A stretch of 64,000 nucleotides of DNA, taken from the IMG/VR virus record IMGVR_UViG_3300032245_001322, positions 1-64,000 of that record; one strand, 5' to 3'. Position numbers and translations under genes: made by a program. The DNA comes from a virus. How positions within the stretch are numbered: the first letter of the stretch is position 1; the number at the start of each line of letters is the position of its first letter. The notes under the pieces were generated by a model. The model was not told where the DNA came from. It did no database searches and saw only the letters and a program-made list of their open reading frames with translations. This document shows positions 33,400-49,225 of the stretch, piece by piece.

Positions 33400-33400
33400 T

Positions 33401-34597: not shown

Positions 34598-35231
34598 CGA
34601 AGTCACATACGGAAATCCGAATGATATTTACTTGCCCTACTTGAAAAAAGGGGGCGAGTTTGAATCATTATATGAGGAATTTAAAAATTTTCCTTTCCCC
34701 TCTAATTCATCAGAGACAACCAAAGATGAAATAAGAGAACTATTGCATTATCAAAATAGCGAAAGTCAACAAAATGAAAAAATTGTTACTCGATATATTT
34801 CCTACGATGATGATTTAGCATCAATTTTAAAGCGTTATTGCGTTGAAAAAATTGGTCAAAACGAAGATGAACTTATTGATGATATTATTGAATCTACAAA
34901 AAGTTTAATCGCAAAATTAAAATTTCACTATCAACGACCAAGACCTTATCAGTTGGCACAATATTTAAAGGCTCGGTTATTCCCTTCAGCAAGTATGTCG
35001 GCATTGAATCCTTCATACCCAAGTGGACATACCTTACAAGCAAAACTTGTTTGTAGTGTTTTGGGAAACAAATACGTTGAACACAATGATTATTTACAAA
35101 AATTGGCACACGACATATCAGTTAGTAGATTGTTCTTAGGATTGCATTATTCAAGTGATAATGATTTTTCCTTAATTATTGCAGACAAAATACTAACAGA
35201 CAAAAACTTCACGAAAAAACATGGAATATGA
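34581..35231 (+). CDS. PAP2-family phosphatase
   Basis: Complete tripartite signature: KLKFHYQRP (K-x6-RP), PSGH, SRLFLGLHYSSD (SR-x5-H-x3-D). Confidence 0.7.
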   Translation: MKSWLDEVTYGNPNDIYLPYLKKGGEFESLYEEFKNFPFPSNSSETTKDEIRELLHYQNSESQQNEKIVTRYISYDDDLASILKRYCVEKIGQNEDELIDDIIESTKSLIAKLKFHYQRPRPYQLAQYLKARLFPSASMSALNPSYPSGHTLQAKLVCSVLGNKYVEHNDYLQKLAHDISVSRLFLGLHYSSDNDFSLIIADKILTDKNFTKKHGI

Positions 35232-36041: not shown

Positions 36042-37049
36042 ATGGACAACAACGTAGGATTTAACGCTGAAGCAGAATTTGAAAATGACTTTTCACCACT
36101 ACAAGAAAATGTAGTTCAAAGAGATTATACAAGACCGAATGTATCGGGAATGGTAGATTCATCTCCTATTGAAGAAGCAGTCGTTATTCCACCAACTTTT
36201 GAAGATTTGAATAATTCATTTCAACAAAATTTAGGTGGTGCAGAAATGGAAGAACAACCAAGTGGCGATGGTAGAAAAGTTTGGGGCTCTGATGACGAAT
36301 CGGGAAGTGCAAACCCTTACACAGAGAATTTAGATAAAAAAGACCAAAAGAAAGCGTCCGAAGCACTTGTAGAAGCCGTTTTAGATGGCTACACTCAATT
36401 AAATGGTTTTGCTAACAAACTTATTCAATTCAATCCGAATAAGGTTCAGAAAATGATTAGCGAAGGGGAAATTGATGGTGGTTTAAGAATTCCAATTCAA
36501 GGTCAAACTATTGGAGTATTAGATTACATTAATGAATACAATAAACAAACCGAAGGAGTTATTAGTGTAAGTGATGAATTTAAAGACAAGGTAAGACCTG
36601 TAATGGTTCGTGTATTCCAAAAGAGAAATATTGGAATGACAGATGAGCAGTTATTGGCTTATTATTTTGGTGTGGATATTATTCAAAAAGGTGCTATGGT
36701 TTATCAATTAAGAGGTCAAAATGCTCAATTATTGGCACAACTTAAAGATATGAGTACGGGTTACACGCCACCACCACCACAAAGAGAACAAGCAAGGGAA
36801 GAAGCCCCACGCCAAGAACCACAACAAACAAATGAAGCCCCACAAAGGGAATATGTTGAACCCGATGAAGTAAAAAAAGAAAGTCCAAAAGAAGAATTCG
36901 TAGAAGTCGAAGTAGTTAAGGAAACACCTAAACGTGCTAAGAGACCTACAACCATGCCCGAATTTGGAAATGAATCTATTTTACAACACATGGAAGATAT
37001 AGCAAACGAAGGTAAACCAAGAACAAATACAAGAAGGAAAAGAAAATGA
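36042..37049 (+). CDS. hypothetical protein with basic C-terminus
   Basis: Ends KPRTNTRRKRK; Pro/Glu-rich segment. Confidence 0.55.
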   Translation: MDNNVGFNAEAEFENDFSPLQENVVQRDYTRPNVSGMVDSSPIEEAVVIPPTFEDLNNSFQQNLGGAEMEEQPSGDGRKVWGSDDESGSANPYTENLDKKDQKKASEALVEAVLDGYTQLNGFANKLIQFNPNKVQKMISEGEIDGGLRIPIQGQTIGVLDYINEYNKQTEGVISVSDEFKDKVRPVMVRVFQKRNIGMTDEQLLAYYFGVDIIQKGAMVYQLRGQNAQLLAQLKDMSTGYTPPPPQREQAREEAPRQEPQQTNEAPQREYVEPDEVKKESPKEEFVEVEVVKETPKRAKRPTTMPEFGNESILQHMEDIANEGKPRTNTRRKRK

Positions 37050-37861
37050 GAGAAGCAATGCTAGGTGTAGCCGTTGGTAAAAAAGGGGTTGGAAAATCCT
37101 TTACCACCAACAAAATGATTCAATCTTATGTAACGGGGAATTTAGCAAGTGGCATACTTCCCCGAAGGGCTTTGATATTAGATGTTAATGATGAATTTTC
37201 TCACATTAAATCAATTGCAATGAAAGACTTAGTGAGATTTTCTGTACACCCTATTGTTGAAGCAAGAAGAATTAGACCTTTTCATGAGAATGGTAAAAAG
37301 ATGACCTTGGACGATATTGCCAAGACGCTTTTTATCATTCTTGAAACATATAGAGGTGGGTTGTTGTTAATTGAAGATATTAATAAATACATATCAGACG
37401 CTTTACCAAATGACGTTATTGGTGCAATTTGTACAAATAGGCATACGGATATGGACATTATCATGCACTTTCAATCTATTGGACGTATTAGCCCAAAAAT
37501 TTGGCAAAACATGAATTGGATTAGATTCCATAAAAATTTGGATTCAGTTGGTCGTCACGCTAAAAAGTTTGAAGACAAATATGAACTACTTCGAATTGTG
37601 GAAATGTTAACCGATAATGAATACAATAGTGGGAATAAAAGATTCTTCCAATATGTAGATATGGACGAGATGAAAATAGTAGGTAAAATAGATGATAAAA
37701 AACTTGACTTTGCTATTCGTCAATACATAGAAGAAAACTATCGTAAAATAATTACCCCTTTATTACAAATAAAAGGGTCAAATGGTAAAAACAAATACAC
37801 AACTGATAGTGCATTGAAATCTGAATACAATAGAATCAAAAATCTTTACACTAATTCATAA
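37046..37861 (+). CDS. small P-loop ATPase (candidate packaging ATPase of A32/PRD1-P9 type, or ParA-like)
   Basis: Walker A GVAVGKKGVGKS; Walker B-like GGLLLIEDI. 271 aa, directly upstream of putative major structural protein. Confidence 0.5.
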   Translation: MREAMLGVAVGKKGVGKSFTTNKMIQSYVTGNLASGILPRRALILDVNDEFSHIKSIAMKDLVRFSVHPIVEARRIRPFHENGKKMTLDDIAKTLFIILETYRGGLLLIEDINKYISDALPNDVIGAICTNRHTDMDIIMHFQSIGRISPKIWQNMNWIRFHKNLDSVGRHAKKFEDKYELLRIVEMLTDNEYNSGNKRFFQYVDMDEMKIVGKIDDKKLDFAIRQYIEENYRKIITPLLQIKGSNGKNKYTTDSALKSEYNRIKNLYTNS

Positions 37862-38029: not shown

Positions 38030-38137
38030 ATGGAAAAGGTAAAAGAATTTTTATTATCGGTAGGAGTTATCGTTGTTGGTGTCCTTGTTGCCAACCAAGT
38101 GCAAAAAGCAATTGACAAAAACAAGACTACAATTTAA
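38030..38137 (+). CDS. small TM protein (35 aa)
   Basis: Below cutoff; LLSVGVIVVGVLVA. Confidence 0.3.
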   Translation: MEKVKEFLLSVGVIVVGVLVANQVQKAIDKNKTTI

Positions 38138-38170: not shown

Positions 38171-38869
38171 ATGAGTATTAGAAAATATTTAGCCGATGCA
38201 CAAAGAAATGCAAACGAAGGCTTCGCAAACGCAGACGGATTTTTTGACGATGATTTGTCATTCACCGCTTCTGATGACTTTTATGGTGCTGATGCATCAT
38301 CAATGGGTGCTCCAAGTGCTCCAACTTCACAACCTTACATCGTAACAATTACTAACACAGGTTCTGCCGTTAATAATTTTGACGTATTAGGTTCATTTGA
38401 ATACATTAACAATAATGGCTTCAATGCAAGTGGTAACTTGGTAATTGGTAACGTAACGATTAGTTCTGCTATTCCAAACGTAACTTACCAACAAATGTTA
38501 TGGCAGTTCCAAAGCGTACCTTATAGCGTAGGTTTGACTTATATCCAATCTGCAACTGCAAATCAGTTGTTGGAGACTTTGTCAATCAACACTAAAGATG
38601 CGAATGGTAACATTGCACAAAAAGCGTTAATCCCAACTCTTGACCCATATCAGCAACAATCAACTGTGTTGGCTATGCGTTATGGCTATAGAATTGATGG
38701 TTACACCAAAATCATCCTTTCTTCTGTTTTAGCATCTACAACTGTTAAATTGTACTTGTACCCAAGTGACAACATTAACATGGCTCGTGGATTAAGTGGT
38801 AAAGCAGTTGCTCGTGATTTCGCATCACCAGGCATTGTACGTTCACAACCTGTTAAATTGGTAGGTTAA
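38171..38869 (+). CDS. putative major virion structural (capsid) protein
   Basis: 232-aa beta-rich protein followed by the strongest rho-independent terminator in the window. Positioned after an ATPase and before a membrane-protein run. Confidence 0.4.
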   Translation: MSIRKYLADAQRNANEGFANADGFFDDDLSFTASDDFYGADASSMGAPSAPTSQPYIVTITNTGSAVNNFDVLGSFEYINNNGFNASGNLVIGNVTISSAIPNVTYQQMLWQFQSVPYSVGLTYIQSATANQLLETLSINTKDANGNIAQKALIPTLDPYQQQSTVLAMRYGYRIDGYTKIILSSVLASTTVKLYLYPSDNINMARGLSGKAVARDFASPGIVRSQPVKLVG

Positions 38870-38892
38870 TCCTAACAATTGACTTTATAAAA

Positions 38893-38926
38893 AGGGTGGG
38901 GTGTTATCGCCCTACCCTTTTTTTTT
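38893..38926 (+). terminator. strong rho-independent terminator after putative major structural gene
   Basis: GGGTGGGGTGTTATCGCCCTACCC followed by T9. Confidence 0.75.
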
Positions 38927-38950: not shown

Positions 38951-39346
38951 ATGTATGAATATATAGCAATAAACAATCCGTATGGAGCAATGTCCGTGTT
39001 AAAATCTTATGGATTAAAAATTAGGGATAAAAGAAACCTTGGTTCGGCTTTACGCAAGTTGGTTGCCCAAGAAGGAGAACCTGCATTACGCAAGATTGCA
39101 GATTTACATCCCGATAAAGAATTAATCATGGATGTATATTCAAACGCAGACGGAGGTTGTAATTGTGGATGTCAAAACAAATCAAGTATGGGTCAAGACC
39201 TTAAATACAATTTTGTTGGAGCAGACGCAAGTACTTCAGTAAGTAACAACCAAGTAAGTGAATCTACTAAATTAGCAATGCAAACAAATGCATTTTTAAT
39301 TGTAGCAACAATAATCATCGCATCAGCAATAATCACAAGAAAATGA
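38951..39346 (+). CDS. C-terminally TM-anchored protein
   Basis: C-terminal helix AFLIVATIIIASAII; shares the FVGADAST motif. Confidence 0.5.
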   Translation: MYEYIAINNPYGAMSVLKSYGLKIRDKRNLGSALRKLVAQEGEPALRKIADLHPDKELIMDVYSNADGGCNCGCQNKSSMGQDLKYNFVGADASTSVSNNQVSESTKLAMQTNAFLIVATIIIASAIITRK

Positions 39347-39903
39347 AACAATTAACAGATAAAGAAGTTTTTTTAGTTGCAGTAGCAACTATTGACAAAA
39401 AGAAACCCGAAGTAATCGCATTGATTAACAAGTATGGTATCAAATTATCACCAAGTGCCGATTTAAAAACTATTGATTCGGCTTTTTTAACTTTGGCTAA
39501 AACGAGCAACAATTTTAGAAAAGAATTTTCTGATTTGTCAGCACAAGCATCTGCATCTTTTACAGGTGACAATGGCTTTTTTGGAGCAGACGCAACACCA
39601 AGTACTTCTACAACTACTTCTACTTCAAGTGGGGGCTTTTTAAGTAAACTTGGTGAATATCTTAGTCCCGATGTTTTCAAATCAATTGTTAACACAGGTT
39701 TAAATGTTTGGTCAGTTAAACAAACAGGTCAAAATGCACCAACTGCTCAAGGGGCTATGGATTCTGCAAGAGAAACTTATTACCAACAACAAGGCACTCA
39801 ATCTTCTGAAAAATCGGGCATGGGTGTAGGTAGCATTATTCTTTTGTCTGTAGGTGGTCTTTTGCTTTTAGGTGGTATTATTTATTTCGTAAGAAAAAAG
39901 TAA
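39343..39903 (+). CDS. C-terminally TM-anchored protein
   Basis: C-terminal GVGSIILLSVGGLLLLGGIIYFV; FFGADATPST motif. Confidence 0.5.
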   Translation: MKQLTDKEVFLVAVATIDKKKPEVIALINKYGIKLSPSADLKTIDSAFLTLAKTSNNFRKEFSDLSAQASASFTGDNGFFGADATPSTSTTTSTSSGGFLSKLGEYLSPDVFKSIVNTGLNVWSVKQTGQNAPTAQGAMDSARETYYQQQGTQSSEKSGMGVGSIILLSVGGLLLLGGIIYFVRKK

Positions 39904-39904
39904 T

Positions 39905-40021
39905 ATGGATGAGGTAAAATTTAAAGAATTAGAAACCAAAGTAAATATGCTTTACAATACGCACAAAGTTGCGATTATTGTTTTGGCAGTTGCTTTAGGA
40001 GTATATCTAATAAAAAAGTAA
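39905..40021 (+). CDS. small TM protein (38 aa)
   Basis: Below cutoff. Confidence 0.3.
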   Translation: MDEVKFKELETKVNMLYNTHKVAIIVLAVALGVYLIKK

Positions 40022-40025
40022 ACCT

Positions 40026-40250
40026 ATGAATGAATTTGAAGATGCATTAGATAACGTAAAAAGCATTAAGGAAACAAATAATCATGATTCTTTTATGTCA
40101 ACTGCTAAACAAACCATAAAAGGAAGTGCAGTTGGTGCTATTGCAGGTTTGATGTTCGCATGGTACAAACAAAAAAATCTCTACGTTTATGGCTTTTTAG
40201 GGGCTATAGGTGGTGGAGCAATTAACTATTTTTTAATAGGGAAAAAATGA
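40026..40250 (+). CDS. small TM protein
   Basis: Gly-rich hydrophobic helices. Confidence 0.5.
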   Translation: MNEFEDALDNVKSIKETNNHDSFMSTAKQTIKGSAVGAIAGLMFAWYKQKNLYVYGFLGAIGGGAINYFLIGKK

Positions 40251-40447
40251 AAACAGAACACATAATTACAGGAATAGTAGTTTTAGGCATAGCCTATTTA
40301 ATTTTCAAGCCTAAAAATGACAAGGTTCTTGATACTGCAAAAGTAACCGAGGAGAGTACATTGTCGTTTGACGCTATTGACGATTCTATGGCAGATATGT
40401 CACAAAAGAATATTTTCAAAAGTAAAGCAAGATTTAATTTAAGATAA
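40247..40447 (+). CDS. small N-terminally TM-anchored protein
   Basis: ATGA overlap. Confidence 0.5.
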   Translation: MKTEHIITGIVVLGIAYLIFKPKNDKVLDTAKVTEESTLSFDAIDDSMADMSQKNIFKSKARFNLR

Positions 40448-40448
40448 A

Positions 40449-41054
40449 ATGAAAACTATAACAAAAGTAGCATTAGTAGTCGGTGGATTAATTATTGCAA
40501 ATAAATTATTGTCAAAGCCAAAAGGAACAACAACTGCAACCGAAGAAGGTGAAGAACCCACTTCGGGTGGTGGTGGAGGTGGTGGATTTCCAATAATTCC
40601 TGCTTTAGGAATACCAATTTTACCTTTAGGTATTCCGATTAGTAAAACAGAAGAACAAATAAAGGCTGAAGCAGATGCAAAAATTAAAGCAGAAGCCGAA
40701 GCAAAAGCAAAAGCCGTTTTGGATAGCGTTCAACAAAAAATAAAAGATATGCAAAAGGCAACTGCTACAACAACTGTGACTCCTGCTTCGGGCACTATTG
40801 GAGACCAATTAGGCATAGGAACAACTTCTGGAACTTCTACGGGAGCAACCACGGGAACTTCTACGGGAACAACTACGGGAACTTCTACGGGAACAACTAC
40901 GGGAACTTCTACGGGTGGTATCTTAGGAGGAACGGGTACAACAACAACTTCGGGGTCAACAGTAACTCGTATGGGTGCTCCAACTCCAATTGGAGGGGTA
41001 ATTCCTTTTGATGGAACAATTGAAACATTAAGACGAAAACCAAATTTTAGATAA
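40449..41054 (+). CDS. N-TM protein with KAEAEAKAKA coiled-coil and (GTSTGTTT)n repeats
   Basis: Tandem 24-nt repeats at 40823..40916 encode a Gly/Thr/Ser-rich segment. Confidence 0.55.
   Translation: MKTITKVALVVGGLIIANKLLSKPKGTTTATEEGEEPTSGGGGGGGFPIIPALGIPILPLGIPISKTEEQIKAEADAKIKAEAEAKAKAVLDSVQQKIKDMQKATATTTVTPASGTIGDQLGIGTTSGTSTGATTGTSTGTTTGTSTGTTTGTSTGGILGGTGTTTTSGSTVTRMGAPTPIGGVIPFDGTIETLRRKPNFR
40823..40916 (+). repeat. in-frame tandem 24-nt repeat (ACGGGAACTTCTACGGGAACAACT, about 3.5 copies)
   Basis: Direct reading; encodes (GTSTGTTT)n. Confidence 0.7.
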
Positions 41055-41641
41055 TGGAAAGTAAAAACATAATTATTGGGGTTGGCGTTTTAGCCATTGG
41101 TGGGTATTTAGCATATAAATACTTTAAAAAGCCTACGGGTCAAGAAAATGAAAATTCTGAAAACGAAAGTGCTAATTCAACAAAAAATCAAACTGCTCAA
41201 GAAGTAACATCTCAAGGATTAAAATTGGGAGAAACTAAAGAAAAAATTCAAGAAGTTGCAGATGTTAAACCATCATCAAGTACGACAACTATGGCAGGTG
41301 GAAATACCCCTGTTAAAGGCATTACTATTGACCCAAATAAAATATCTTCTTCAAAAGCACCTTTTGTAAATGCAAAAATTATGAAAGATATTAACAAGAA
41401 AATTTTAACAGGTCAAATAGTTCCTTTGTTTAAAAAAGGAGATATTGTTAGTGTTGCAAATACTTTTGGAGATTCAACTGAAACTTATGTTGAAGGCAAT
41501 ACATCATTAAAATTAAAATGGGATGTTGATGTATATTTCCCAAGAAGTGGAAGTAAAATAAATACTGCAAGTGGAGTAGGTGGAGCACCTCAATTTGATG
41601 GTGGCAAAACCAAAGGACATAATTTCCCTTATTTTTATTAA
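41054..41641 (+). CDS. N-terminally TM-anchored protein
   Basis: Hydrophobic N-terminus. Confidence 0.5.
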   Translation: MESKNIIIGVGVLAIGGYLAYKYFKKPTGQENENSENESANSTKNQTAQEVTSQGLKLGETKEKIQEVADVKPSSSTTTMAGGNTPVKGITIDPNKISSSKAPFVNAKIMKDINKKILTGQIVPLFKKGDIVSVANTFGDSTETYVEGNTSLKLKWDVDVYFPRSGSKINTASGVGGAPQFDGGKTKGHNFPYFY

Positions 41642-41650
41642 TTTTACAAA

Positions 41651-41908
41651 ATGATTAGTGCTAATAAAATATATAAAGAAAGTGGTTCTTCTTTGCCTTT
41701 TAAAGATTGGTTGGAGAGAGAAAAGAATAAAGGACATTTTATTCCTAACGCTCAAGCATTAAAAGAATTCCAAAATTTTGATGGTGAAGAAAGCACGGAA
41801 ACAAATATCAAAGGCGAATTTATCGGAAGCAATGTAATGAGAAATACTTTGATTGTTTTAGGTTTAGGAATTGGAATATATTTATTTTATAAATTACAGA
41901 CACAATGA
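41651..41908 (+). CDS. C-terminally TM-anchored protein
   Basis: Hydrophobic C-terminus. Confidence 0.5.
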   Translation: MISANKIYKESGSSLPFKDWLEREKNKGHFIPNAQALKEFQNFDGEESTETNIKGEFIGSNVMRNTLIVLGLGIGIYLFYKLQTQ

Positions 41909-42126
41909 GTTTAACAAATAAGCAATTAGCATGTATTGGTATTGGAATTATTTGCGTAATTATTATTTATGCAAATAGGGGAAATTTGCCACTTCCTAAA
42001 GAGCCATTAAATGCTGATGGTGATGGTGTTAACGCAATTGATAAAGCAATTGCACTATTAAAGAGTGGGCAAATTAAAGTAAATGAAATGCCCGATAACG
42101 TAAAGCAACAATTGAATGAAGTATAA
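41905..42126 (+). CDS. N-terminally TM-anchored protein
   Basis: Hydrophobic N-terminus. Confidence 0.5.
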   Translation: MSLTNKQLACIGIGIICVIIIYANRGNLPLPKEPLNADGDGVNAIDKAIALLKSGQIKVNEMPDNVKQQLNEV

Positions 42127-42901
42127 AATAACAACAAACTACGCTCCTTTAACTTTGGCAGTTACTTTAAAAACAAGTAAACCTACCAAGTTGCAATTGT
42201 GTGTGTATGATGCAACGGACAAGACAAGAAAATTTACCGATAGATACAAAACTATCAATGGTGAAGAAACTTTGTATGTCCGTATGCCATTATCACCCGA
42301 AGTTGCAGTAGTTGAAGTTTATAATTGTGCACTTGGTAAGAATATACCAAGAGAACAAGAAAAATCATTCGAAATAGTAAGTGTTCGAAAAACACCTTTA
42401 GAAAGAAGGTTGGATGAGAACGATATGGGAAATGCGTTAATTAAGAGTTTTGTGGATTTTTCACAAAAATTTGCATTTAACCTTGGAGAATTGACCCCAA
42501 ACACCTATAAAAGTGACGATAATCGCTATTTTATACGATTAAGTCAACAAATAAAAGGTCAAGATGGAAAAGTCTTAAATACACCTGCAAGAGTAGGTAG
42601 GAAAACAGGAATTATTGAAGTCTCTAAAGAAGAGTTTCAAAAAATGACTATTCCAATGAGATTAGCAATTCTATTTCATGAATTTTCTCATTATTACTTA
42701 AATGAACAAATAAATGATGAAATGGAAGCAGATTTGAATGGTTTATTGATTTATTTGTCTTTGGGTTATCCAAGGATTGAAGCATATCAAGCATTCTTGG
42801 AAACTTTCCAAGGAAGACCTTCAAAATTAAACAAGGAAAGAGCCGATTTGATTGATAAATTTATCAATGATTTCGACAAATTAAATATGGTAATTAAATA
42901 A
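42116..42901 (+). CDS. putative zinc metallopeptidase (HExxH)
   Basis: AILFHEFSHYYLNE contains HEFSH. Confidence 0.45.
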   Translation: MKYKITTNYAPLTLAVTLKTSKPTKLQLCVYDATDKTRKFTDRYKTINGEETLYVRMPLSPEVAVVEVYNCALGKNIPREQEKSFEIVSVRKTPLERRLDENDMGNALIKSFVDFSQKFAFNLGELTPNTYKSDDNRYFIRLSQQIKGQDGKVLNTPARVGRKTGIIEVSKEEFQKMTIPMRLAILFHEFSHYYLNEQINDEMEADLNGLLIYLSLGYPRIEAYQAFLETFQGRPSKLNKERADLIDKFINDFDKLNMVIK

Positions 42902-42908
42902 GTAAAAA

Positions 42909-43358
42909 ATGGTAGTAACAACTTGGAATGTAGTTCCCGATTATGATGCTTGGGGTTCAGATACTTCTTGGACTTGTGACAATTGGATTCAATGGCACAA
43001 AGAACTAAAGAAGCGTTTTGGTGGTGATAAAGCCAATGCTATTTGGAACTATGCATATTCACTTCAAAGTGATGGTGCAAGAGCATTAGATTGCAGAACA
43101 TTTAACACGGCATTTAGGAAATATATGACTGAGGAATCATTAGACCCGTATGCGAGTGCAGGAGTTTTTGCATTAGTTTTAAAACCAATTGGTGCAGGTA
43201 CGGATTTAGTAGATTCGGCTTCAAATTTGATTACGAATATTGGTCAAGGAATTAGTGGTTTTTTTAGTGGAAACATGATTAAAACCATCGTAACAATTGG
43301 TGTAGTTGGAGTTGTTGGATATTATGGTTACAAGTTTTATAAATCTACACAATCATGA
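42909..43358 (+). CDS. C-terminally TM-anchored protein
   Basis: Hydrophobic C-terminus. Confidence 0.5.
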   Translation: MVVTTWNVVPDYDAWGSDTSWTCDNWIQWHKELKKRFGGDKANAIWNYAYSLQSDGARALDCRTFNTAFRKYMTEESLDPYASAGVFALVLKPIGAGTDLVDSASNLITNIGQGISGFFSGNMIKTIVTIGVVGVVGYYGYKFYKSTQS

Positions 43359-43528
43359 AAAAAGAAACTTGGGTAAAAATAGGGATAATAAGTGCAGTCG
43401 CTATTGTTGGAGTTATCATTATAACAAAAAACAAAGAAACGGCTAAGTATGGTGGAAAAACTAAAGAAGAGTTTGACGCTGAAGAAATAAAAAAATTAGT
43501 TGACGCAATAGATAAAGCCAAAAAATGA
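43355..43528 (+). CDS. small N-TM protein (57 aa)
   Basis: Below cutoff; ATGA overlaps on both sides. Confidence 0.35.
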   Translation: MKKETWVKIGIISAVAIVGVIIITKNKETAKYGGKTKEEFDAEEIKKLVDAIDKAKK

Positions 43529-44055
43529 AAAAAGAATATTTAATATATGGTGGACTTGGAGTAGTTGTTTTGATTGCTTTGTATTATGCAACTAAAGACA
43601 CGCCAAAAGGAGACACTTCTGAAGATGAAGGACAAACTGTAAGTGATATTGAACAAGGTTCAGATAAAACAAAAGAGCAAATAAAATTAGACCCTGCTTT
43701 AGCAAATATTTTTAAATCTCCAACTTGGAATAAAGATATAATTGGTAAAAAGGTTTATTCTAAAATTGCCGATATAAAACTTAGAGATAACGAATTGGTT
43801 AATGATGGATTAATTAACAATATTTATGGTGTTGTATCTAAAGCAGGTACATATCTCGGTGATGTTGTTGGTGCTTATTATGATAGAGGTGGTGCAATAA
43901 ATCCCGAAAGTAAAGTAAAATATAAGTGGGTTAAAATTAAATTAACTGATGCAGTTTATAAAGAAGTTCAAAGTGAAAAAAGTTTTTTAACTAAGGATTT
44001 GTTCAAAATACCAAATGTTTACAAATATGTTAGGGAGGATGTAATTAAATTATGA
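43525..44055 (+). CDS. N-terminally TM-anchored protein
   Basis: Hydrophobic N-terminus. Confidence 0.5.
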   Translation: MKKEYLIYGGLGVVVLIALYYATKDTPKGDTSEDEGQTVSDIEQGSDKTKEQIKLDPALANIFKSPTWNKDIIGKKVYSKIADIKLRDNELVNDGLINNIYGVVSKAGTYLGDVVGAYYDRGGAINPESKVKYKWVKIKLTDAVYKEVQSEKSFLTKDLFKIPNVYKYVREDVIKL

Positions 44056-44450
44056 AAAATAAAAAATTAATTTATGGCACTATTATCGTGCTTGGAATAT
44101 ATGTGCTTTACAAAATGTTCAAAAGTGATAGTCCGATTGTTTTAGTTGCAGGTGGTGGTATTGATAAAACACCTTACGACCCAAATGAAGATATGTCAAA
44201 ATACAAATCAAATTCATTTGACCCTATTGCTGAAGCAATTAAAGATGGAATTTTCGAAACTAAAGTTATGTTATTCCAAAATAAATTGAATAAAGTTTTA
44301 GCACAAAAATATCCGAACGAACCTCAATTAATAGCAGATGGTCGTTTGGGTGACAAAACTTTAAAAGCAATTATCAGAGTTTTTGGTGATAGAATGTTGC
44401 CAATAGTAAGCAAACAACAAGTTGAATTTTTAAGTAATCAATTAAAATAA
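44052..44450 (+). CDS. N-TM protein with peptidoglycan-binding-like domain
   Basis: LNKVLAQKYPNEPQLIADGRLGDKTLKAI resembles PG_binding_1. Confidence 0.45.
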   Translation: MKNKKLIYGTIIVLGIYVLYKMFKSDSPIVLVAGGGIDKTPYDPNEDMSKYKSNSFDPIAEAIKDGIFETKVMLFQNKLNKVLAQKYPNEPQLIADGRLGDKTLKAIIRVFGDRMLPIVSKQQVEFLSNQLK

Positions 44451-44451
44451 A

Positions 44452-45000
44452 ATGGAAATAGATGTATTTTACCAAAATGATGATATGTCTTTTGGATTTG
44501 ACGGAATGTCAAAATTAGATAAAAATGCTTTTGCTTTTGCAAAAAAAGCACAATATGGATTTTCCGATGTAGATTATTCGTATGCTGATGGCAAACCCGA
44601 TGGAAGTTGGGGAAGTAGACAACAAGAAGCATATAAAGGAAGATTTGAAGGATGGAAAAAAAGTTATAGAACAGATTGTACTATGCTTGAAAAATATATT
44701 AACAATTGCAAAAAACAAATCAAAAAAGATGAAGATGATTATTTAACTGCAAGTGTTGATAGAAAAAGAGTTATTAATGATTACATTCAAGGTTCAAAAT
44801 ATGCTTTATCTGAATTAGAAGGATATTATGATAAAGCAGAATGTTTGATAAAAAAAACTAAAGAAGAAGAACAAAATTATCAAAATGAATTATTAAATGC
44901 AAAAGGCAATTCTAAAATTGGTACTTTTGTATTAATAGGTTCAATTGTGGTTTTGGTTGGAGTAGTTGGATTTTTGGCTTATAGGAGATTTAACAAATGA
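44452..45000 (+). CDS. C-terminally TM-anchored protein
   Basis: Hydrophobic C-terminus. Confidence 0.5.
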   Translation: MEIDVFYQNDDMSFGFDGMSKLDKNAFAFAKKAQYGFSDVDYSYADGKPDGSWGSRQQEAYKGRFEGWKKSYRTDCTMLEKYINNCKKQIKKDEDDYLTASVDRKRVINDYIQGSKYALSELEGYYDKAECLIKKTKEEEQNYQNELLNAKGNSKIGTFVLIGSIVVLVGVVGFLAYRRFNK

Positions 45001-45851
45001 AAAATATAAATAAACAATTAGGGGCAACTGTACGAAGAAATGTAACCCCAATAGGTATGTTTAAAAGTCGGAATGGCTTTTTAAATTTAGAAGGTTCTTA
45101 CGCTTATTCAAATATTAATTTGAGTGGGTTGGAAGATATTGACAAAAATGGCGATTTTCAAAAAAGAGTCATGGCTATGGTTGATGAATTAAAAAATTCT
45201 AAAGGATATAAAATTAATGAATCAATTGATGATGACACTTTAGATAGCCAAATGAACGAAGTTCAATCGTATGCAAATAACGAAGGGAATAAAGCATTAC
45301 AAACTAAATCAAGACTTCAAAAAGATTATGGAAAACAATTTGGAAGTGCTTTAAAATCAGAATTAAATGGATGGTTAAAAAGTGGTGCAAATGGTCAATG
45401 GAATGATTTATTCAATCAATACCAATTAGCAAATGCTTTGAGCATTATTGCAGTTTCCATGAAAAAAGAACTTGATTTAAGGCAAAAAATTAGTGATAGA
45501 ATTAATTCTGCGATTAAAGAAGGTGATTTAACTTTAATTAAAAGTTTAGAAAACGAGTATCGCACTATTGAACAAAAGAAACAAATTAAGGATGCTATTT
45601 TATTTGCTGAAGCACAAGAAAAAAAGAAAGAAGAGGAACGCTTAAAGCAACAAAAATTAGATGAACTAAATAGCAAGTTAGCAAACGCAAAAACGGCTGA
45701 AGAAAGACAAGCAATTGCTTCTCAAATTTCCAATCTTACAGGTAGCGTAGCATCTCAGTTTGGCATTCCTAAAGGGATGATTTATTTTGGGATTGGTATT
45801 GCAGTTGTAGTTGGTGTTTGGATTACAATTAGAGCAATTAGAAAAGACTAA
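44997..45851 (+). CDS. C-terminally TM-anchored coiled-coil protein
   Basis: C-terminal GIGIAVVVGVWITI. Confidence 0.5.
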   Translation: MKNINKQLGATVRRNVTPIGMFKSRNGFLNLEGSYAYSNINLSGLEDIDKNGDFQKRVMAMVDELKNSKGYKINESIDDDTLDSQMNEVQSYANNEGNKALQTKSRLQKDYGKQFGSALKSELNGWLKSGANGQWNDLFNQYQLANALSIIAVSMKKELDLRQKISDRINSAIKEGDLTLIKSLENEYRTIEQKKQIKDAILFAEAQEKKKEEERLKQQKLDELNSKLANAKTAEERQAIASQISNLTGSVASQFGIPKGMIYFGIGIAVVVGVWITIRAIRKD

Positions 45852-45852
45852 A

Positions 45853-46356
45853 ATGGATAAAACAAGTAAATTTTTATTGGCAGTTGGTGGGGGCTTGGGT
45901 GCTTTTGCTATATTCCGTTATGTGTACAAAACAATTTCATTGGCTCAAAGAATGGAATTGCAATATGAAGGATTCATTATAAAAACTATTACCCCCGAAT
46001 TATCGGGAGTAGTAACTATGAATATTTTAAATAAATCTGATTTAACATTAACGATTAAGAATGTCGATATAAAATTATTTGCAGGTACTGCCGAAGTTGG
46101 AAGTTTAGTTCAACCAAGAGAATTAAGCATTTTGCCTAATGGTAAGTCTTTGATAAGATTAAATATAAATGTTAATTATCAAAGTGTTATAGATGGTTTT
46201 GGTCAAATCAAAAATGCAATTAAATCAACAAATGATTTGCCAATAGATATTATTGGTAATGCAGATGTTAAATCAATTTTTGGTTGGGTTAAAATGCCAT
46301 TAAAATATTCTACAAGTGGTAAAGATTTAAAAGCACTTTACGACCAATATTATTAA
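45853..46356 (+). CDS. N-terminally TM-anchored protein
   Basis: Track start 45811 is TTG; ATG at 45853. Confidence 0.5.
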   Translation: MDKTSKFLLAVGGGLGAFAIFRYVYKTISLAQRMELQYEGFIIKTITPELSGVVTMNILNKSDLTLTIKNVDIKLFAGTAEVGSLVQPRELSILPNGKSLIRLNINVNYQSVIDGFGQIKNAIKSTNDLPIDIIGNADVKSIFGWVKMPLKYSTSGKDLKALYDQYY

Positions 46357-46357
46357 A

Positions 46358-46924
46358 ATGTCAGCAACTCAAGATTATATTAGTAAGCACATAGGAGATG
46401 TTATGTTAGCAGTTCAAGGGAGTAAAATATTCCCCGAAGTTGCTATATCTCAAAGTGCTTTGGAAAGTTCTTGGGGGAAATCGTTACTTGCAAGTAAATA
46501 CAATAACTACTTTGGAATTAAAGCAAGTCCCGATTGGAAAGGCGAAACAATAACTTTAAAAACTGATGAAGTTTACAATGGTGTAAAAAGCAATATAAGT
46601 GGGACTTTTAGAGTTTATGATTCTTTTTTGGATTCAGTTAGAGATTATGTTAAATTTTTAACTGAAAATCCAAGATATACTTCGGGTGGAGTGTTTAATG
46701 CAATTTCGCCCGAAGAACAAATCAAAAGATTAAAAGAGTCGGGATATGCTACAGGTTTAGACTATACTCAAATCGTTATAAATGTTTTAAAATCGAATAG
46801 AGATTACATTCAAGACAAAATTACGGATTATTTAAAAAACCAACCTGCAAAAGCATTGTTAGTAATTTTATTGTTTGCAGGGGTTGTGTATAGCGTATAT
46901 AAGTTGTCAAAATTGAATAAATAA
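46358..46924 (+). CDS. membrane-anchored glucosaminidase (FlgJ-type PG hydrolase)
   Basis: AISQSALESSWGKSLLASKYNNYFGIKA is the glucosaminidase-domain signature. C-terminal TM helix. Confidence 0.7.
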   Translation: MSATQDYISKHIGDVMLAVQGSKIFPEVAISQSALESSWGKSLLASKYNNYFGIKASPDWKGETITLKTDEVYNGVKSNISGTFRVYDSFLDSVRDYVKFLTENPRYTSGGVFNAISPEEQIKRLKESGYATGLDYTQIVINVLKSNRDYIQDKITDYLKNQPAKALLVILLFAGVVYSVYKLSKLNK

Positions 46925-46938
46925 CATATTTTTGTAAT

Positions 46939-47325
46939 ATGTTAGTTGGCAGAATTAAAAAAGACTTTCTCAATGGAGTCAATAAAATCGCATTAAAAAA
47001 ACAATGCAACATTGAACAAATTCAGATAAAATTAACCTTTGGTGAAAGTCAAGAAAATCCAATAGTTTACACTTTGTGTCAAGATTGGAAACCTTACGAA
47101 GTAAGTACTTACAAGGCTATCATGGACAAAAAATTTGACTTCATTGGTGAGGAAAGTCTTGTTACGCCTTATTTAATTCATTCCATGGCTACAAAGATGC
47201 AAGAGATTGGTGCTGAACCACATCAGTTCTCTGCTTACTTGCAAGAGTTTAAAGGCACAATTATGGTTGCTTTGTTTAAAGGAGTGAATTGCATTAAAAC
47301 TTTACCTATTGAACAATTGTTCTGA
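46939..47325 (+). CDS. hypothetical protein
   Basis: ORF. Confidence 0.5.
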   Translation: MLVGRIKKDFLNGVNKIALKKQCNIEQIQIKLTFGESQENPIVYTLCQDWKPYEVSTYKAIMDKKFDFIGEESLVTPYLIHSMATKMQEIGAEPHQFSAYLQEFKGTIMVALFKGVNCIKTLPIEQLF

Positions 47326-47431
47326 TTATATTTTTATATAATTTTTACCTAAAATAACACTTATTGTTTTTATTGATTTTAAAGTATAAATTTGCGTAAG
47401 CCCAAAAGGGCTTAAATGTTTATTGTTAAAA

Positions 47432-47677
47432 ATGATAGGGAAAAAAGCATTCAGTATTGATGACTTATGGACTTGGTTTTTAAGAATCATTATGGGAATT
47501 GTGTCATTTATTTTGATGGAAACTTATAATGATATAAAAAAGATGAGCCAAGACTTGGGTGAGATAAAGGTAATTGTTGCTCAAAGTCAAAAAGACATTG
47601 AGTACTTAAAAGACGACCATAAACAATTTAAAGAGGAAACTAAAGGGCGTTTAACTTACTTAGAACAAAAAAAATAA
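47432..47677 (+). CDS. small N-TM protein
   Basis: Track start 47423 is TTG; ATG at 47432; TAAATTTG upstream. Confidence 0.45.
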   Translation: MIGKKAFSIDDLWTWFLRIIMGIVSFILMETYNDIKKMSQDLGEIKVIVAQSQKDIEYLKDDHKQFKEETKGRLTYLEQKK

Positions 47678-47679
47678 TT

Positions 47680-47982
47680 ATGTCAGCAGAATTAATTGCA
47701 GGATTGGTAGAAGGTATAGGTAATATGGGTGTTAACATCTATAACAATGAGGATAATCAAAACCTTAAATCTTACTTAGCAGGTAAAACACTTGCAGACC
47801 AAAGAGAGATTCAACAACAAATGTTGTCTTTACAAACCCAAGCCCAAAAACAAGCATACGCTCAATCTATGATTGATAAAGCAAGAAAAACAAAATACAT
47901 ACCTTATTACATAGCAGGTGGCGTATTATTGGTGACTATTGGTATTGCATTGTTCGTTGTTTTTAGAAAAAAAGACGTTTAA
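47680..47982 (+). CDS. C-terminally TM-anchored protein
   Basis: Hydrophobic C-terminus. Confidence 0.5.
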   Translation: MSAELIAGLVEGIGNMGVNIYNNEDNQNLKSYLAGKTLADQREIQQQMLSLQTQAQKQAYAQSMIDKARKTKYIPYYIAGGVLLVTIGIALFVVFRKKDV

Positions 47983-47983
47983 A

Positions 47984-48295
47984 ATGGATTCAAGGATAAG
48001 AGATTATTTACTCATTGGTGGTATAGTCGTAGTTGGCTATTTAATTCTTGTTCCAAGGAGCAAAGGTATTAAAAAACCACAAGTTGCAACTGAGAGTGAC
48101 GTAAGTCAAGTTCAAAATGCAAGAACTGTGTTAGATGCTTTCTTAAATGCGTATGAAGCCAAAGAACCACCATCCGAACTAAACAAATTAAATCAAATAT
48201 TTGTTAAAGAATATGGATTGAAGGTTCATAAACGTAAAGACGGGAAATTTGTTGCTCGTACTTTAGATGGTAAAGATGTTTTAATGGTTAAATAA
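47984..48295 (+). CDS. N-terminally TM-anchored protein
   Basis: Track start inside the previous gene; ATG at 47984. Confidence 0.45.
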   Translation: MDSRIRDYLLIGGIVVVGYLILVPRSKGIKKPQVATESDVSQVQNARTVLDAFLNAYEAKEPPSELNKLNQIFVKEYGLKVHKRKDGKFVARTLDGKDVLMVK

Positions 48296-48738
48296 TGCCG
48301 AGTGTACCACCAAATATCACAGTTGGGTCAACACCTACTATTGTTGTAGATAGTATTAGTGGAGTTTCCTATAATCAAATCAATCAAAGTATTGGTTCGT
48401 TTAGTTATTTGGTTAAAAATATTTACATTTATTCAAGTAATCTTGACCAACTTTTACAACCAATAGGTTTAAAAAAGTATAATAAATTTGGTGATAAGCA
48501 CATTCGTGTTTTACAACCAATGATTGACCCTTATCAAACATCAAGTGCTTTAAATCAAACTACAATAGGATTAGATTATGCTTTCGATTCCAATAATGGA
48601 TTTTATCCAATTATATCAGCAAACACAACTGCAACTTTTCAAATTGATACTAGACAAATAAGTGCAGACGAATTACTAAATATAAGAAGTAATTTTGAAG
48701 ATATTGAATTTTTAACAGATTACTTAAACGATTTTTAA
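48295..48738 (+). CDS. hypothetical protein
   Basis: ORF. Confidence 0.5.
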   Translation: MPSVPPNITVGSTPTIVVDSISGVSYNQINQSIGSFSYLVKNIYIYSSNLDQLLQPIGLKKYNKFGDKHIRVLQPMIDPYQTSSALNQTTIGLDYAFDSNNGFYPIISANTTATFQIDTRQISADELLNIRSNFEDIEFLTDYLNDF

Positions 48739-49112
48739 TGATTGACGGAAAGATAGTTGTAAACGTAACAAATAACTTGGCATTCGATGCTCAAGTTTCA
48801 TTATTTGGTTCTACTTCAGACCCTTTGGCTTCTTCCGTTGGTGCTTATACTCAATATCATTGGGATATTGCTTACCCGTTTTTAAATGTGGCAAATACTC
48901 CAATTATGTATTTGGAATATAAGAATGTTGGAGCACCAAGTTTTTCGACCATTCCTTTTTATACAAATTTAACTTATCAAGGAATTTGGATTGGTTTAAA
49001 TAGTTTAAATATGGGTATTTTTTGGAATGGTTATCCTACTTTCATACCAACAATTGGGTATCAAGTTTATACTTCAAACGATAAGTTTGAATTTGGGAAT
49101 ATTACTTGGTAA
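48738..49112 (+). CDS. hypothetical protein
   Basis: Last ORF of the plus block, before a convergent terminator. Confidence 0.5.
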   Translation: MIDGKIVVNVTNNLAFDAQVSLFGSTSDPLASSVGAYTQYHWDIAYPFLNVANTPIMYLEYKNVGAPSFSTIPFYTNLTYQGIWIGLNSLNMGIFWNGYPTFIPTIGYQVYTSNDKFEFGNITW

Positions 49113-49138
49113 AAAAAAAGAGGGATTTTAACCCCTCT
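49110..49138 (-). terminator. terminator at the convergent junction
   Basis: AGAGGG-ATTTTAAC-CCCTCT hairpin flanked by an A9/T9 tract. Confidence 0.55.
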
Positions 49139-49225
49139 TAATTGTGAAACGAACAGTCGTTAGCGTTGGAAAAAATCAAATCACTTTATTTTGGTAAAAA
49201 TATCGTGTGGTACAAAAATAGTAAA

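Follow-up and report, generated by a model that had tools for sequence, protein, structure and literature searches.

A conserved run of anchored membrane-protein genes beside packaging and capsid candidates suggests a phage with an internal membrane

Between positions 38951 and 48295 of a 64-kb stretch of viral DNA (IMG/VR record IMGVR_UViG_3300032245_001322, positions 1 to 64,000; hereafter the window), 22 closely spaced ORFs of 38–284 aa lie on the + strand (Table 1). Twenty of the 22 encode a protein with a single hydrophobic anchor, which ends 2–8 residues from the C-terminus in ten cases (m1–m4, m8, m11, m15, m16, m18 and m21) and begins at residue 3–12 in ten (m5–m7, m9, m12–m14, m17, m20 and m22); the ORFs at 42116–42901 and 46939–47325 have no anchor. 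An earlier note on this DNA had described about 18 small, co-directional and tightly packed genes, each for a protein with exactly one helix. The packing and the run itself were borne out, with 20 anchored proteins rather than about 18, and one helix was the rule for most of them, but m4 probably has two and m6 carries an additional Pro-rich hydrophobic stretch. Nine of the 21 junctions overlap (seven as ATGA, one by 1 nt and one by 11 nt), seven are separated by 1–2 nt, four by 4–14 nt and one by 106 nt. Frame errors that would merge the ORFs into larger proteins, named earlier as a possible refutation, were not found. At 45853, 47432 and 47984, ortholog lengths favoured the ATG over the upstream TTG given by the ORF tool, which places the helix at the extreme N-terminus. 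The helices of the train are rich in Gly, Ile and Val, and a basic cluster follows most of them.

Table 1. Features of the membrane-protein gene train and its flanks, in window positions.
Feature	Coordinates	Strand	Description
Small membrane proteins and SLT block	31885..34244	+	upstream of the train
PAP2-family phosphatase	34581..35231	+	Pfam PAP2 E 4e-9, above cutoff
Packaging ATPase candidate	37046..37861	+	271 aa, FtsK-HerA superfamily, no membrane helix
tm35	38030..38137	+	35 aa, single-pass membrane protein, gene flanked by ATPase and MCP232
MCP232	38171..38869	+	232 aa, major capsid protein candidate, very conserved
Terminator hairpin	38889..38922	+	15-bp stem, T-run, between MCP232 and train
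m1	38951..39346	+	131 aa, C-terminal anchor 112–129, helical N-domain
m2	39343..39903	+	186 aa, C-terminal anchor 158–183, Ser/Thr-rich linker; dN/dS 0.26
m3	39905..40021	+	38 aa, C-terminal anchor; called also on independent assembly
m4	40026..40250	+	74 aa, glycine-zipper protein, probably two-helix hairpin
m5	40247..40447	+	66 aa, N-terminal anchor
m6	40449..41054	+	201 aa, N-terminal anchor, then Gly/Pro-rich hydrophobic stretch
m7	41054..41641	+	195 aa, N-terminal anchor
m8	41651..41908	+	85 aa, C-terminal anchor; orthologs 35–86% identity
m9	41905..42126	+	73 aa, N-terminal anchor
s10	42116..42901	+	261 aa, soluble, HEFSH (HExxH) motif, no membrane helix
m11	42909..43358	+	149 aa, C-terminal anchor
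m12	43355..43528	+	57 aa, N-terminal anchor
m13	43525..44055	+	176 aa, N-terminal anchor
m14	44052..44450	+	132 aa, N-terminal anchor
m15	44452..45000	+	182 aa, C-terminal anchor
m16	44997..45851	+	284 aa, coiled-coil-rich, C-terminal anchor
m17	45853..46356	+	167 aa, N-terminal anchor, LEA_2-like beta-sandwich domain
m18	46358..46924	+	188 aa, predicted FlgJ-type N-acetylglucosaminidase, C-terminal anchor
s19	46939..47325	+	128 aa, soluble, no membrane helix; orthologs 30–92% identity
Hairpin	47397..47414	+	terminator-like, within the train's sole long gap
m20	47432..47677	+	81 aa, N-terminal hydrophobic helix with one Arg
m21	47680..47982	+	100 aa, C-terminal anchor
m22	47984..48295	+	103 aa, N-terminal anchor; ortholog length 103 aa
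b147	48295..48738	+	147 aa, distant MCP232 jelly-roll paralog, closes train
b124	48738..49112	+	124 aa, beta-rich, soluble, last gene of the unit; dN/dS 0.09
Terminator hairpin	49116..49139	.	ends + strand unit, faces convergent RecT gene

All orthologs of m1 are C-anchored, at 33–95% identity (dN/dS 0.14), and no ortholog of m3 was found in the nearest IMG/VR relative. m4 matches Pfam Gly-zipper_YMGG weakly (E 0.002; orthologs at 35–93% identity). C-terminal to its hydrophobic stretch, m6 has a coiled-coil-like KAEAEAKAK segment and then a Thr/Gly-rich tail. The counterpart of m16 in the nearest relative has equal length and topology at only 24% identity, a replacement. For m17 the Pfam LEA_2 match (E 3e-5) fell just short of the cutoff, and the ortholog length of 167 aa fits the ATG at 45853. 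The enzyme assignment of m18 comes from Pfam Glucosaminidase (E 6e-30) and NCBIfam FlgJ (E 8e-32), and its membrane core spans residues 164–181. The soluble s10 is the most conserved gene within the train, with orthologs at 45–95% identity in all relatives and a dN/dS of 0.04; it matched nothing in Pfam, PHROG or NCBIfam, and the HExxH motif by itself suggests that it may be a metalloprotease. A motif [FY]x[GN]AD[GA] is common to MCP232, m1 and m2; we speculate that it may mark these proteins for processing by, or docking to, s10.

Membrane helices were scored with a home-made hydrophobicity criterion rather than a trained predictor, namely an uncharged 15-mer with a mean Kyte-Doolittle value of at least 1.5. 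By this test 19 of the 23 ORFs of 38030–48295 were positive, against 18 of 106 (17%) among the window's remaining ORFs (Fisher p = 3e-9); m6 and m20 were near misses, each broken by one K or R. Shuffles of the same proteins gave on average 1.6 positives and at most 6. The density of anchored membrane proteins, which the earlier note had called unusual, thus lies far above chance. The train genes are under purifying selection, with a dN/dS of 0.04–0.37 against the nearest relative in every ORF that has an ortholog. A separate gene call on another assembly returned identical ORFs, including those of 35 and 38 aa, through 40447, which is as far as that call reaches, the following ORF being truncated at the contig end. 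Both the order of the train and the positions of the anchors are kept in 20 related viral contigs, and an anchor holds its N- or C-terminal position while the soluble parts fall to 20–50% identity. In relatives that keep train order and anchor type, MCP232 is only 63–80% identical to that of the window.

Upstream of the train, the packaging ATPase candidate shows the P-loop fold typical of FtsK-HerA proteins, with both Walker motifs (A and B), and lies 310 nt from MCP232, an arrangement identical in all relatives. Its structure model is confident and has as its closest match B204, the genome-packaging NTPase of STIV2, an icosahedral archaeal virus that contains a membrane, the window protein being about 70 residues longer at the C-terminus, where it forms helices. 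It also fits the size class of small single-domain enzymes (about 200–270 aa) encoded beside a capsid gene. Profile alignment to the packaging ATPase of P23-77 reached 79.6% (hhalign), the match to Pfam DUF87 (E 1e-3) was below cutoff, and with P9 of PRD1 and PM2 the P-loop alone aligned. The model makes it a good candidate for a B204-like genome-packaging enzyme. Next to it, tm35 has the hydrophobic core FLLSVGVIVVGVLVA and keeps its position in relatives. MCP232 is a single jelly roll (one beta-sandwich) that also has a helix at its N-terminus and a disordered acidic linker. Its family comprises 789 clusters at 50% identity and more than 1000 at 90%, at least one of them from Tara Oceans; neither by sequence nor by profile was it found to resemble PRD1, PM2 or P23-77 capsid proteins. 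We know of no solved precedent for a shell holding 60–107 kb built from a single 232-aa jelly-roll protein. The terminator that follows the gene occurs at the equivalent place in 17 of 17 distinct relatives, with differing stem sequences and a dG of -19 to -30 kcal/mol.

At the downstream end, b147 aligns with MCP232 at 96.8% (hhalign, profile A1 against A3; E 2.3e-10, 97 columns) with a common DPYQ motif, and also by plain blastp (E 2e-8). Only 35 clusters of its family were found. It is a candidate penton or second capsid protein, and the sole MCP232 paralog in the window, 9.4 kb downstream of MCP232. b124 had no match among the families searched.

The block at 31885–34244 contains an N-anchored coiled-coil protein (31885–32163), a lipoprotein with an LIGC lipobox (32160–32465), a 48-aa membrane protein, an SLT transglycosylase (32635–33399; Pfam E 1e-4) and further membrane proteins of 80, 38 and 160 aa. 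It is probably a lysis cassette, with spanin and holin roles assigned by inference. The PAP2 phosphatase adjoins the module in all relatives as an ORF of 214–216 aa. The whole genome has 30% G+C and measures about 68 kb, of which about 3.8 kb fall beyond the window; the roughly 1.6 kb seen of this remainder holds small ORFs only. Relatives are discrete contigs of 60–107 kb from a viral collection. Peptidoglycan hydrolases and the lipoprotein point to a bacterial host, and a Shine-Dalgarno-like motif precedes only 10 of 105 genes, as in Bacteroidota. No terminase large subunit or other terminase gene, portal, HK97-fold capsid or tail family was found with PHROG and Pfam in 49 ORFs, including all of at least 195 aa, a scan that highly divergent versions could escape, and membership in Caudoviricetes was rejected on this result. 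Among the unassigned ORFs just one exceeds 400 aa, and it lacks a P-loop.

The genes downstream of the capsid genes in known membrane-containing viruses proved similarly rich in helices, with 16 of 19 positive in PRD1, 7 of 12 in PM2 and 11 of 19 in P23-77, in line with the comparison to PRD1 and PM2 that had been proposed. The late region of PRD1 (Tectiviridae) runs from the P9 ATPase through gpi and P20 to the P3 capsid protein and on to P22, P18, P32, P34, P30, P11, P16, P7/P14 and P35. Like the train and its upstream genes in the window, it is co-directional and closely packed and passes from ATPase to tiny membrane proteins, capsid gene and a train of single-pass membrane proteins; tm35 is placed as PRD1 gpi/P20 and PM2 P7 are, and m18 resembles PRD1 P7, likewise a lytic enzyme of the train whose helix is C-terminal. 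However, the capsid protein of PRD1 is a double jelly roll of 395 aa and the phage has a linear 15-kb genome with a terminal protein and a protein-primed polymerase, the window encodes roughly double the number of membrane proteins, of which many have large soluble domains, and no sequence similarity between the two was detected except the P-loop. PM2 (Corticoviridae) likewise encodes P9 ATPase, P7 (34 aa), P2 capsid protein and then P3, P4, P8 and other membrane proteins, but its genome is a 10-kb circle that encodes a double-jelly-roll capsid protein and a protein for rolling-circle replication. The gene order of Thermus phage P23-77 is nearly that of the window; with haloarchaeal SH1 it belongs to Helvetiavirae (realm Singelaviria), whose single-jelly-roll capsid proteins, FtsK-HerA packaging ATPase and small membrane-protein genes running downstream resemble what the window encodes, and which also have virion-associated muralytic enzymes. 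SSIP-1, tailless with an internal membrane and a Bacteroidota-type host, combines a fairly large genome (43,788 bp) with almost no database similarity, a profile that the phage of the window would share; the present group is AT-rich and 1.4–2.4 times larger, and the window's ATPase and capsid profiles had no detectable similarity to SSIP-1 ORFs.

Two further assignments were rejected. Helvetiavirae carry side-by-side genes for two vertical single-jelly-roll major capsid proteins, and the window has one 232-aa gene with its 147-aa paralog far away and no capsid homology to P23-77 VP16/VP17 or SH1 VP4/VP7. Bamfordvirae-type viruses (Tectiviridae, Corticoviridae and relatives) did not fit either, MCP232 having one beta-sandwich and the window no other candidate; prokaryotic members have small genomes of 7–18 kb (PMC5894146), far from the sizes found here.

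Taken together, we consider it likely, at a probability of about 0.7, that the train encodes the membrane proteins of an icosahedral phage that has no tail and carries a lipid vesicle beneath its protein shell. This reading draws on the position of the train after an ATPase, a very small membrane protein and a jelly-roll candidate, as in PRD1, PM2 and P23-77, on the tail-anchored peptidoglycan hydrolase like PRD1 P7 inside it, on the jelly-roll paralog that closes it, and on the lack of tailed-phage structural genes among the ORFs scanned. The membrane-embedded virion or assembly complex that had been suggested earlier is thereby supported by context, on comparative grounds. Late in infection, capsid protein would be made in excess, the terminator passing less transcript to the minor membrane proteins, which would enter the host cytoplasmic membrane via N-terminal signal-anchors or C-terminal tail-anchors. 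A procapsid enclosing a vesicle could then form as capsid protein co-assembles with a membrane patch, with b147 perhaps at the vertices. For packaging, the ATPase might dock on small membrane proteins at a single vertex and pump the dsDNA of about 68 kb into the vesicle; by position, tm35 corresponds to PRD1 P20/P22. On entry, anchored m18 would breach the peptidoglycan and membrane proteins would drive fusion or tube formation; release would proceed via the separate SLT and spanin-like cassette.

Lysis and exclusion functions typically use small single-pass proteins, the probable lysis cassette lies nearby, and the PRD1 late region also encodes a holin and non-structural membrane-associated assembly factors, so the train proteins might instead be non-structural and act on the host membrane as holins, spanins, superinfection-exclusion or transport-blocking effectors, or an assembly-site scaffold. 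We consider this unlikely. Twenty genes in one conserved order by capsid and packaging genes are far above known lysis and exclusion cassettes, accessory effectors are usually variable whereas order and anchor type are kept here, and anchored m18 suits an entry enzyme. The battery of host-membrane effectors offered earlier as the other possibility found no backing, since searches with PADLOC, PHROG and Pfam gave no effector or defence family and order and topology are strictly kept. The train as a holin/endolysin/spanin cassette was also rejected, having 20 anchored proteins and no lipoprotein; 31885–34244 is the better candidate.

Quite improbable in our view is an enveloped or pleomorphic virion whose membrane would lie on the outside, as it does in Plasmaviridae or Cystoviridae, the train then encoding envelope proteins. 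Inner and outer membranes are indistinguishable by sequence alone, and the sizeable soluble domains of many train proteins could be surface spikes, but the B204/P9-type ATPase and the order of ATPase, tiny membrane protein and jelly roll point to internal-membrane icosahedral viruses, the only prokaryotic viruses in which, to our knowledge, this combination has so far been found. We know of no pleomorphic membrane virus with a packaging ATPase of this type. A plasmid or conjugative element, whose ATPase and membrane proteins would form a secretion or DNA-transfer apparatus, is very improbable: the best structural match of the ATPase is an equally small viral packaging enzyme, the jelly-roll protein is abundant and conserved like a capsid protein, the relatives come as discrete viral contigs, and no relaxase, VirB4-size ATPase, coupling protein or VirB6/VirB10-like protein was found among the ORFs scanned. 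A compositional artefact, by which the Ile, Leu, Phe and Val codons of an AT-rich genome would make short ORFs seem hydrophobic in a simple helix test, is practically inconceivable, being refuted by the shuffles, the rest of the genome, the terminal helices with their basic clusters, the dN/dS values and the anchors kept in relatives.

Counts under the electron microscope have long pointed to tailless viruses as the dominant kind in aquatic samples, while the known membrane-containing phages are few and small (10–18 kb), SSIP-1 being exceptional at 44 kb. On the internal-membrane reading, the train would mark an undescribed, widespread group of large (about 60–107 kb), lipid-containing and apparently tailless bacterial viruses. 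In this group, abundant in metagenomes, the PRD1-type plan of packaging ATPase, jelly-roll shell and internal membrane would be enlarged, with about 20–30 membrane proteins and a different capsid-protein family. A tentative proposal, held at somewhat less than even odds, goes further: the window would stand for a major lineage not yet described, ranking as a family or higher, of tailless phages with an internal membrane and their own single-jelly-roll shell family. Such genomes would exceed those of all known prokaryotic viruses with this architecture several-fold. Studies of viral membrane building and DNA delivery could draw on the conserved tail- and head-anchored proteins, and the module provides concrete marker genes for detecting and isolating such phages. 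The lineage as proposed includes tandem two-barrel fusions in some members. One relative (L014) has a second MCP232 paralog of 217 aa upstream of the ATPase, and tandem-fused two-barrel paralogs, absent from the window, occur in the distant relatives P0308 and P0360. Single, duplicated and fused jelly rolls form a natural series bearing on the origin of double-jelly-roll capsid proteins, in which the fusion would have repeated, in nature and independently, the step from a single jelly roll to a double one.

The run of small membrane-protein genes at 38951-48295 contains 22 ORFs, all on the + strand and encoding proteins of 38-284 aa. The earlier note had described small co-directional ORFs with a helix at the extreme N- or C-terminus, and this held: a C-terminal anchor was found in 10 ORFs (m1, m2, m3, m4, m8, m11, m15, m16, m18 and m21) and an N-terminal anchor in another 10 (m5, m6, m7, m9, m12, m13, m14, m17, m20 and m22), above chance by both shuffling and the rest of the window. 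Its count of about 18 single-pass genes has to be raised to 20 anchored ORFs, and its rule of exactly one helix per protein applies in general, with two exceptions: m4, which is a glycine-zipper protein and a probable hairpin, and m6, in which a Pro-rich second hydrophobic stretch accompanies the anchor. The other two, s10 and s19, are soluble proteins with no anchor. In the C-anchored proteins, 15-26 uncharged residues make up a hydrophobic core that stops 2-8 residues short of the C-terminus; in the N-anchored ones a like uncharged core begins at residue 3-12. Ile makes up 20% of the core residues, Val and Gly 17% each; at least two Gly occur in 17 of 21 cores, and 2-4 basic residues directly follow the core in most anchors. 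Nine of the 21 gene junctions overlap (seven as ATGA), seven have gaps of 1-2 nt and four of 4-14 nt, and the remaining one, of 106 nt, contains a hairpin. In three ORFs the first start given by the ORF tool was TTG; ortholog lengths of 167, 81 and 103 aa place the real starts at ATG 45853, 47432 and 47984.

Anchors were scored with a home-made helix test, namely an uncharged 15-mer with a mean Kyte-Doolittle value of at least 1.5. This replaced a Hessa-scale test with a strict 19-residue window, tried first, which missed many helices because their cores are short (15-20 aa) and Gly-rich. By the 15-mer test, 19 of the 23 ORFs in 38030-48295 were positive, against 18 of 106 elsewhere in the window (Fisher p = 3e-9), and shuffled versions of the 38030-48295 proteins gave a mean of 1.6 positives and a maximum of 6. 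Relative to the closest related contig, dN/dS was 0.04-0.37 for every ORF of the run with an ortholog. When genes were called independently on another assembly, identical ORFs were obtained through 40447, including the 35-aa and 38-aa ones, the next ORF being cut by the contig end. Taken together, the anchors, the chance controls, the dN/dS values and the independent gene call confirm the observation. No paralogy was detected among the membrane proteins of the run by all-against-all blastp, and recent tandem duplication is therefore not its origin. Family searches with these proteins (Pfam, PHROGs, NCBIfam, PADLOC) yielded nothing usable except weak Gly-zipper and LEA_2 matches. A sigma-70 promoter scan did not rise above shuffles, and TAnnTTTG motifs are too frequent in the AT-rich DNA of the window to interpret.

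Coordinates of the features in and around the membrane-protein gene run
Feature	Position	Strand	Remarks
Lysis-cassette candidate	31885-34244		upstream block, separate from the run
PAP2-family phosphatase	34581-35231		Pfam E 4e-9; adjoins the morphogenetic module in all relatives
Packaging ATPase candidate, 271 aa	37046-37861		upstream of the run
tm35, 35-aa single-pass protein	38030-38137		upstream of the run
MCP232, 232 aa, major capsid protein candidate	38171-38869		directly upstream of the run; [FY]x[GN]AD[GA] at residues 18-23 and 37-42
Terminator hairpin, 15-bp stem	38889-38922		straight after the MCP232 gene
m1	38951-39346	+	[FY]x[GN]AD[GA] at residues 63-68 and 88-93
m2	39343-39903	+	[FY]x[GN]AD[GA] at residues 79-84
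s10	42116-42901	+	without hydrophobic anchor
m16, 284 aa	44997-45851	+	C-anchored
s19	46939-47325	+	without hydrophobic anchor
b147, 147 aa, distant MCP232 jelly-roll paralog	48295-48738		far end of the run

The candidate packaging ATPase has a confident AlphaFold model (pLDDT 89.8), and its profile aligned over 141 columns with the P23-77 (Thermus phage) packaging enzyme at 79.6%. By fold, motif, size and position it resembles packaging enzymes of the P9/B204 type; in sequence it is a candidate member, with a Pfam DUF87 match under the cutoff (E 1e-3) and alignment to PRD1 and PM2 P9 in the P-loop only. A 335-aa ORF upstream of it (36042-37049), considered on size as a double-jelly-roll candidate, was rejected because it is acidic and of low complexity, with a basic tail. 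Homologs of the capsid candidate MCP232 form more than 1000 clusters at 63-99% identity, all unnamed, and its family comprises 789 representative clusters at 50% identity. Its model, of moderate confidence (pLDDT 63.6), places a beta-sandwich core at residues 55-200, preceded by a helix at the N-terminus and an acidic linker that is disordered, and Foldseek of this model against BFVD returned only generic C1q/TNF-like jelly rolls with TM-scores below 0.3. Searched by sequence with the MCP232 and ATPase profiles, the PDB gave no match beyond the P-loop; GenBank phages gave none to megablast of 36000-49200 or to tblastn of the ATPase and the capsid candidate. The hairpin after the capsid-protein gene occupies the same position in 17 of 17 distinct relatives (among L001-L022, the related contigs), with an A-tract before and a T-tract after it. 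Its stems differ strongly among relatives (GGGTGGGGTG, GGGCGGGCG, GGGGCGAAGGC, GGGCAAGA, GAGAGCAAGT), which, on these sequences, is covariation; since different stems stand at one place in all 17, the terminator is conserved as a structure.

The helix test was also applied to the genes from the ATPase onward in the genomes of PRD1, PM2, P23-77 and SSIP-1, with 16 of 19 positive in PRD1, 7 of 12 in PM2 and 11 of 19 in P23-77. The comparison with PRD1 and PM2, suggested in the earlier note, revealed the gene plan of the window in both phages, helix-rich downstream genes included. The order is P9 ATPase, gpi, P20, P3 capsid protein, P22, gpx, gpl, P18, P32, P34, P30, gpq, P11, P16, P7/P14 and P35 in PRD1, and P9, P7 (34 aa), P2 capsid protein, P3, P4, P8 etc. 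in PM2. A muralytic enzyme with a C-terminal helix is represented by the P7 transglycosylase in PRD1 and by m18, a FlgJ-type glucosaminidase, in the window (Pfam E 6e-30; NCBIfam FlgJ E 8e-32). Beyond the ATPase, the window has no sequence similarity to PRD1, PM2, P23-77 or SSIP-1: in hmmsearch neither the capsid nor the ATPase profile matched any ORF of these four, and in hhalign the capsid profile gave no match to PRD1 P3 or P31, PM2 P2, or P23-77 VP16, VP17 or VP11.

We consider it likely, at a probability of about 0.7, that the run encodes the membrane proteins of a tailless icosahedral phage with a lipid vesicle under its protein shell, by the mechanism proposed here. The life cycles of PRD1 and PM2 provide the features on which the steps are modeled, and the window provides the anatomy. 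The membrane proteins would be inserted into the host cytoplasmic membrane, where capsid protein, in excess because the terminator is proposed to attenuate read-through, would join a patch of membrane to form a procapsid around a vesicle, with b147 as a candidate vertex protein. The ATPase would dock on small membrane proteins at a single vertex and package the DNA. On entry, the anchored glucosaminidase would digest peptidoglycan, and membrane proteins would mediate fusion or tube formation. The review behind this analogy is PMC6356626. It is unlikely that the anchored proteins are instead non-structural effectors placed in the host membrane, and somewhat less likely still that they belong to an outer envelope and not to an inner membrane. 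A conjugative apparatus appears very improbable, and a compositional artefact is refuted by the shuffles, the rest of the window and the dN/dS values.

At the far end of the run, b147 matched MCP232 in profile-profile alignment (96.8%, E 2.3e-10, 97 columns), with a DPYQ motif common to both, and in plain blastp (E 2e-8). Next come a beta-rich protein of 124 aa and a terminator facing the convergent RecT gene. Five copies of the motif [FY]x[GN]AD[GA] are present among the 130 ORFs of the window, all of them in the adjacent MCP232, m1 and m2 (chance expectation about 0.09), and every site lies in a predicted disordered linker; in orthologs it is relaxed to [FYM]x[GNS]AxG. Docking or proteolytic processing may take place at this motif, and the conserved HExxH protein s10 is a candidate protease for such processing.

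MCP232 is carried by 20 IMG/VR contigs of up to 101 kb, and other assemblies of the group reach 99-107 kb. Gene order is identical in all contigs extending far enough: ATPase, tiny membrane protein, jelly-roll protein, m1 and m2 (C-anchored), m4, N-anchored proteins, m8 (C), m9 (N) and s10, then m11 (C), m12, m13 and m14 (N), m15 and m16 (C), m17 (N) and s19. The anchor end is kept while the soluble parts drop to 20-50% identity. Compared with the nearest relative, m16 keeps its length and topology at about 24% identity, its neighbours being at 74-95%; it appears to be a virion-membrane protein that is hypervariable locally and perhaps under host-driven selection. Two distant members of the MCP232 family, P0308 (397 aa) and P0360 (411 aa), are tandem fusions with two complete jelly-roll cores per polypeptide; P0308 lies at 10001-11194 of the 107-kb contig L031 and was seen on four contigs from independent samples. 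P0375 and P0384 have insertions of about 100 aa. Such members form a natural series from single to double jelly roll. One relative, L014, has an extra 217-aa paralog of the capsid candidate just upstream of its ATPase (6778-7431; 42% identity); the N-terminus of this paralog differs and is hydrophobic and basic.

The window leaves out about 3.8 kb of the genome, of which about 1.6 kb, seen on another assembly, holds small ORFs only; the genome is put at about 68 kb because an exact copy of b147 lies on a 67,810-bp contig. Prokaryotic double-jelly-roll viruses are reported to have genomes of 7-18 kb (PMC5894146), whereas the window virus lies far outside this range and its capsid candidate has one barrel; hence it is not a member. 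Helvetiavirae, which are now placed in realm Singelaviria (PMC12714852), are defined in part by two adjacent capsid genes and by homologous capsid proteins, and the window virus has neither of these features. Excluded from both groups, the virus is, by analogy, one that works like a PRD1- or P23-77-type virus outside any described family. No description of such a group was found in the literature, of which coverage was partial, so that an earlier one is possible.

The window is a phage-like genome of 30% G+C that encodes RecT and an exonuclease, RusA, a DnaD-like initiator, glycosyltransferases, a CobS/CobT-like AAA pair, a polyvalent ART protein and two tRNAs. No terminase, portal, HK97 capsid or tail protein was found in 49 ORFs scanned with PHROGs and/or Pfam (including all of at least 195 aa), and a P-loop is absent from the sole unassigned ORF longer than 400 aa. 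The block beginning at 31885 is probably a lysis cassette. It contains a spanin-like pair, in which the gene of a coiled-coil protein with an N-terminal anchor (31885-32163) shares an ATGA overlap with a gene for a lipoprotein that has a LIGC lipobox (32160-32465). Downstream of the pair are a membrane protein of 48 aa, the SLT transglycosylase (32635-33399) and further membrane proteins (80, 38 and 160 aa). The PAP2 phosphatase may act on or modify lipids.

A scan of genome contigs for the host returned only short, evidently misbinned MAG contigs. A Shine-Dalgarno-like motif stands upstream of only 10 of 105 genes (at least 60 aa, whole window), and the sequence before starts is A-rich, as in Bacteroidota. 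A Gram-negative host, which may belong to Bacteroidota, is indicated by the peptidoglycan hydrolases, by the lipoprotein with its lipobox and by the rarity of Shine-Dalgarno motifs.

Elsewhere in the window, a 268-aa protein (58873-59679) without a family match shows by eye a YkuD-like L,D-transpeptidase motif (H...S.GC). A 763-aa protein of DUF285 (BspA-like) repeats (55318-57609; Pfam E 2.5e-145) lies outside the structural block and is a candidate adhesin or receptor-binding protein. The intein-split glycosyltransferase (19186-21786; 866 aa) carries a LAGLIDADG homing endonuclease in its intein, and the AAA pair (25981-28736) consists of a MoxR/CobS-like ATPase (484 aa) followed by a DUF7192 protein (433 aa). 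The polyvalent protein with its ADP-ribosyltransferase domain (ART-PolyVal) and a DUF2958/DUF5661 protein, at 22280-24640 and 30216-31085, are of types typical of DNA-co-delivered proteins of phages and conjugative elements; the relative L031 has an 1811-aa version. The tRNA genes, Leu (AAG) and Met (CAT), lie on the - strand at 8-82 and 1929-2000.
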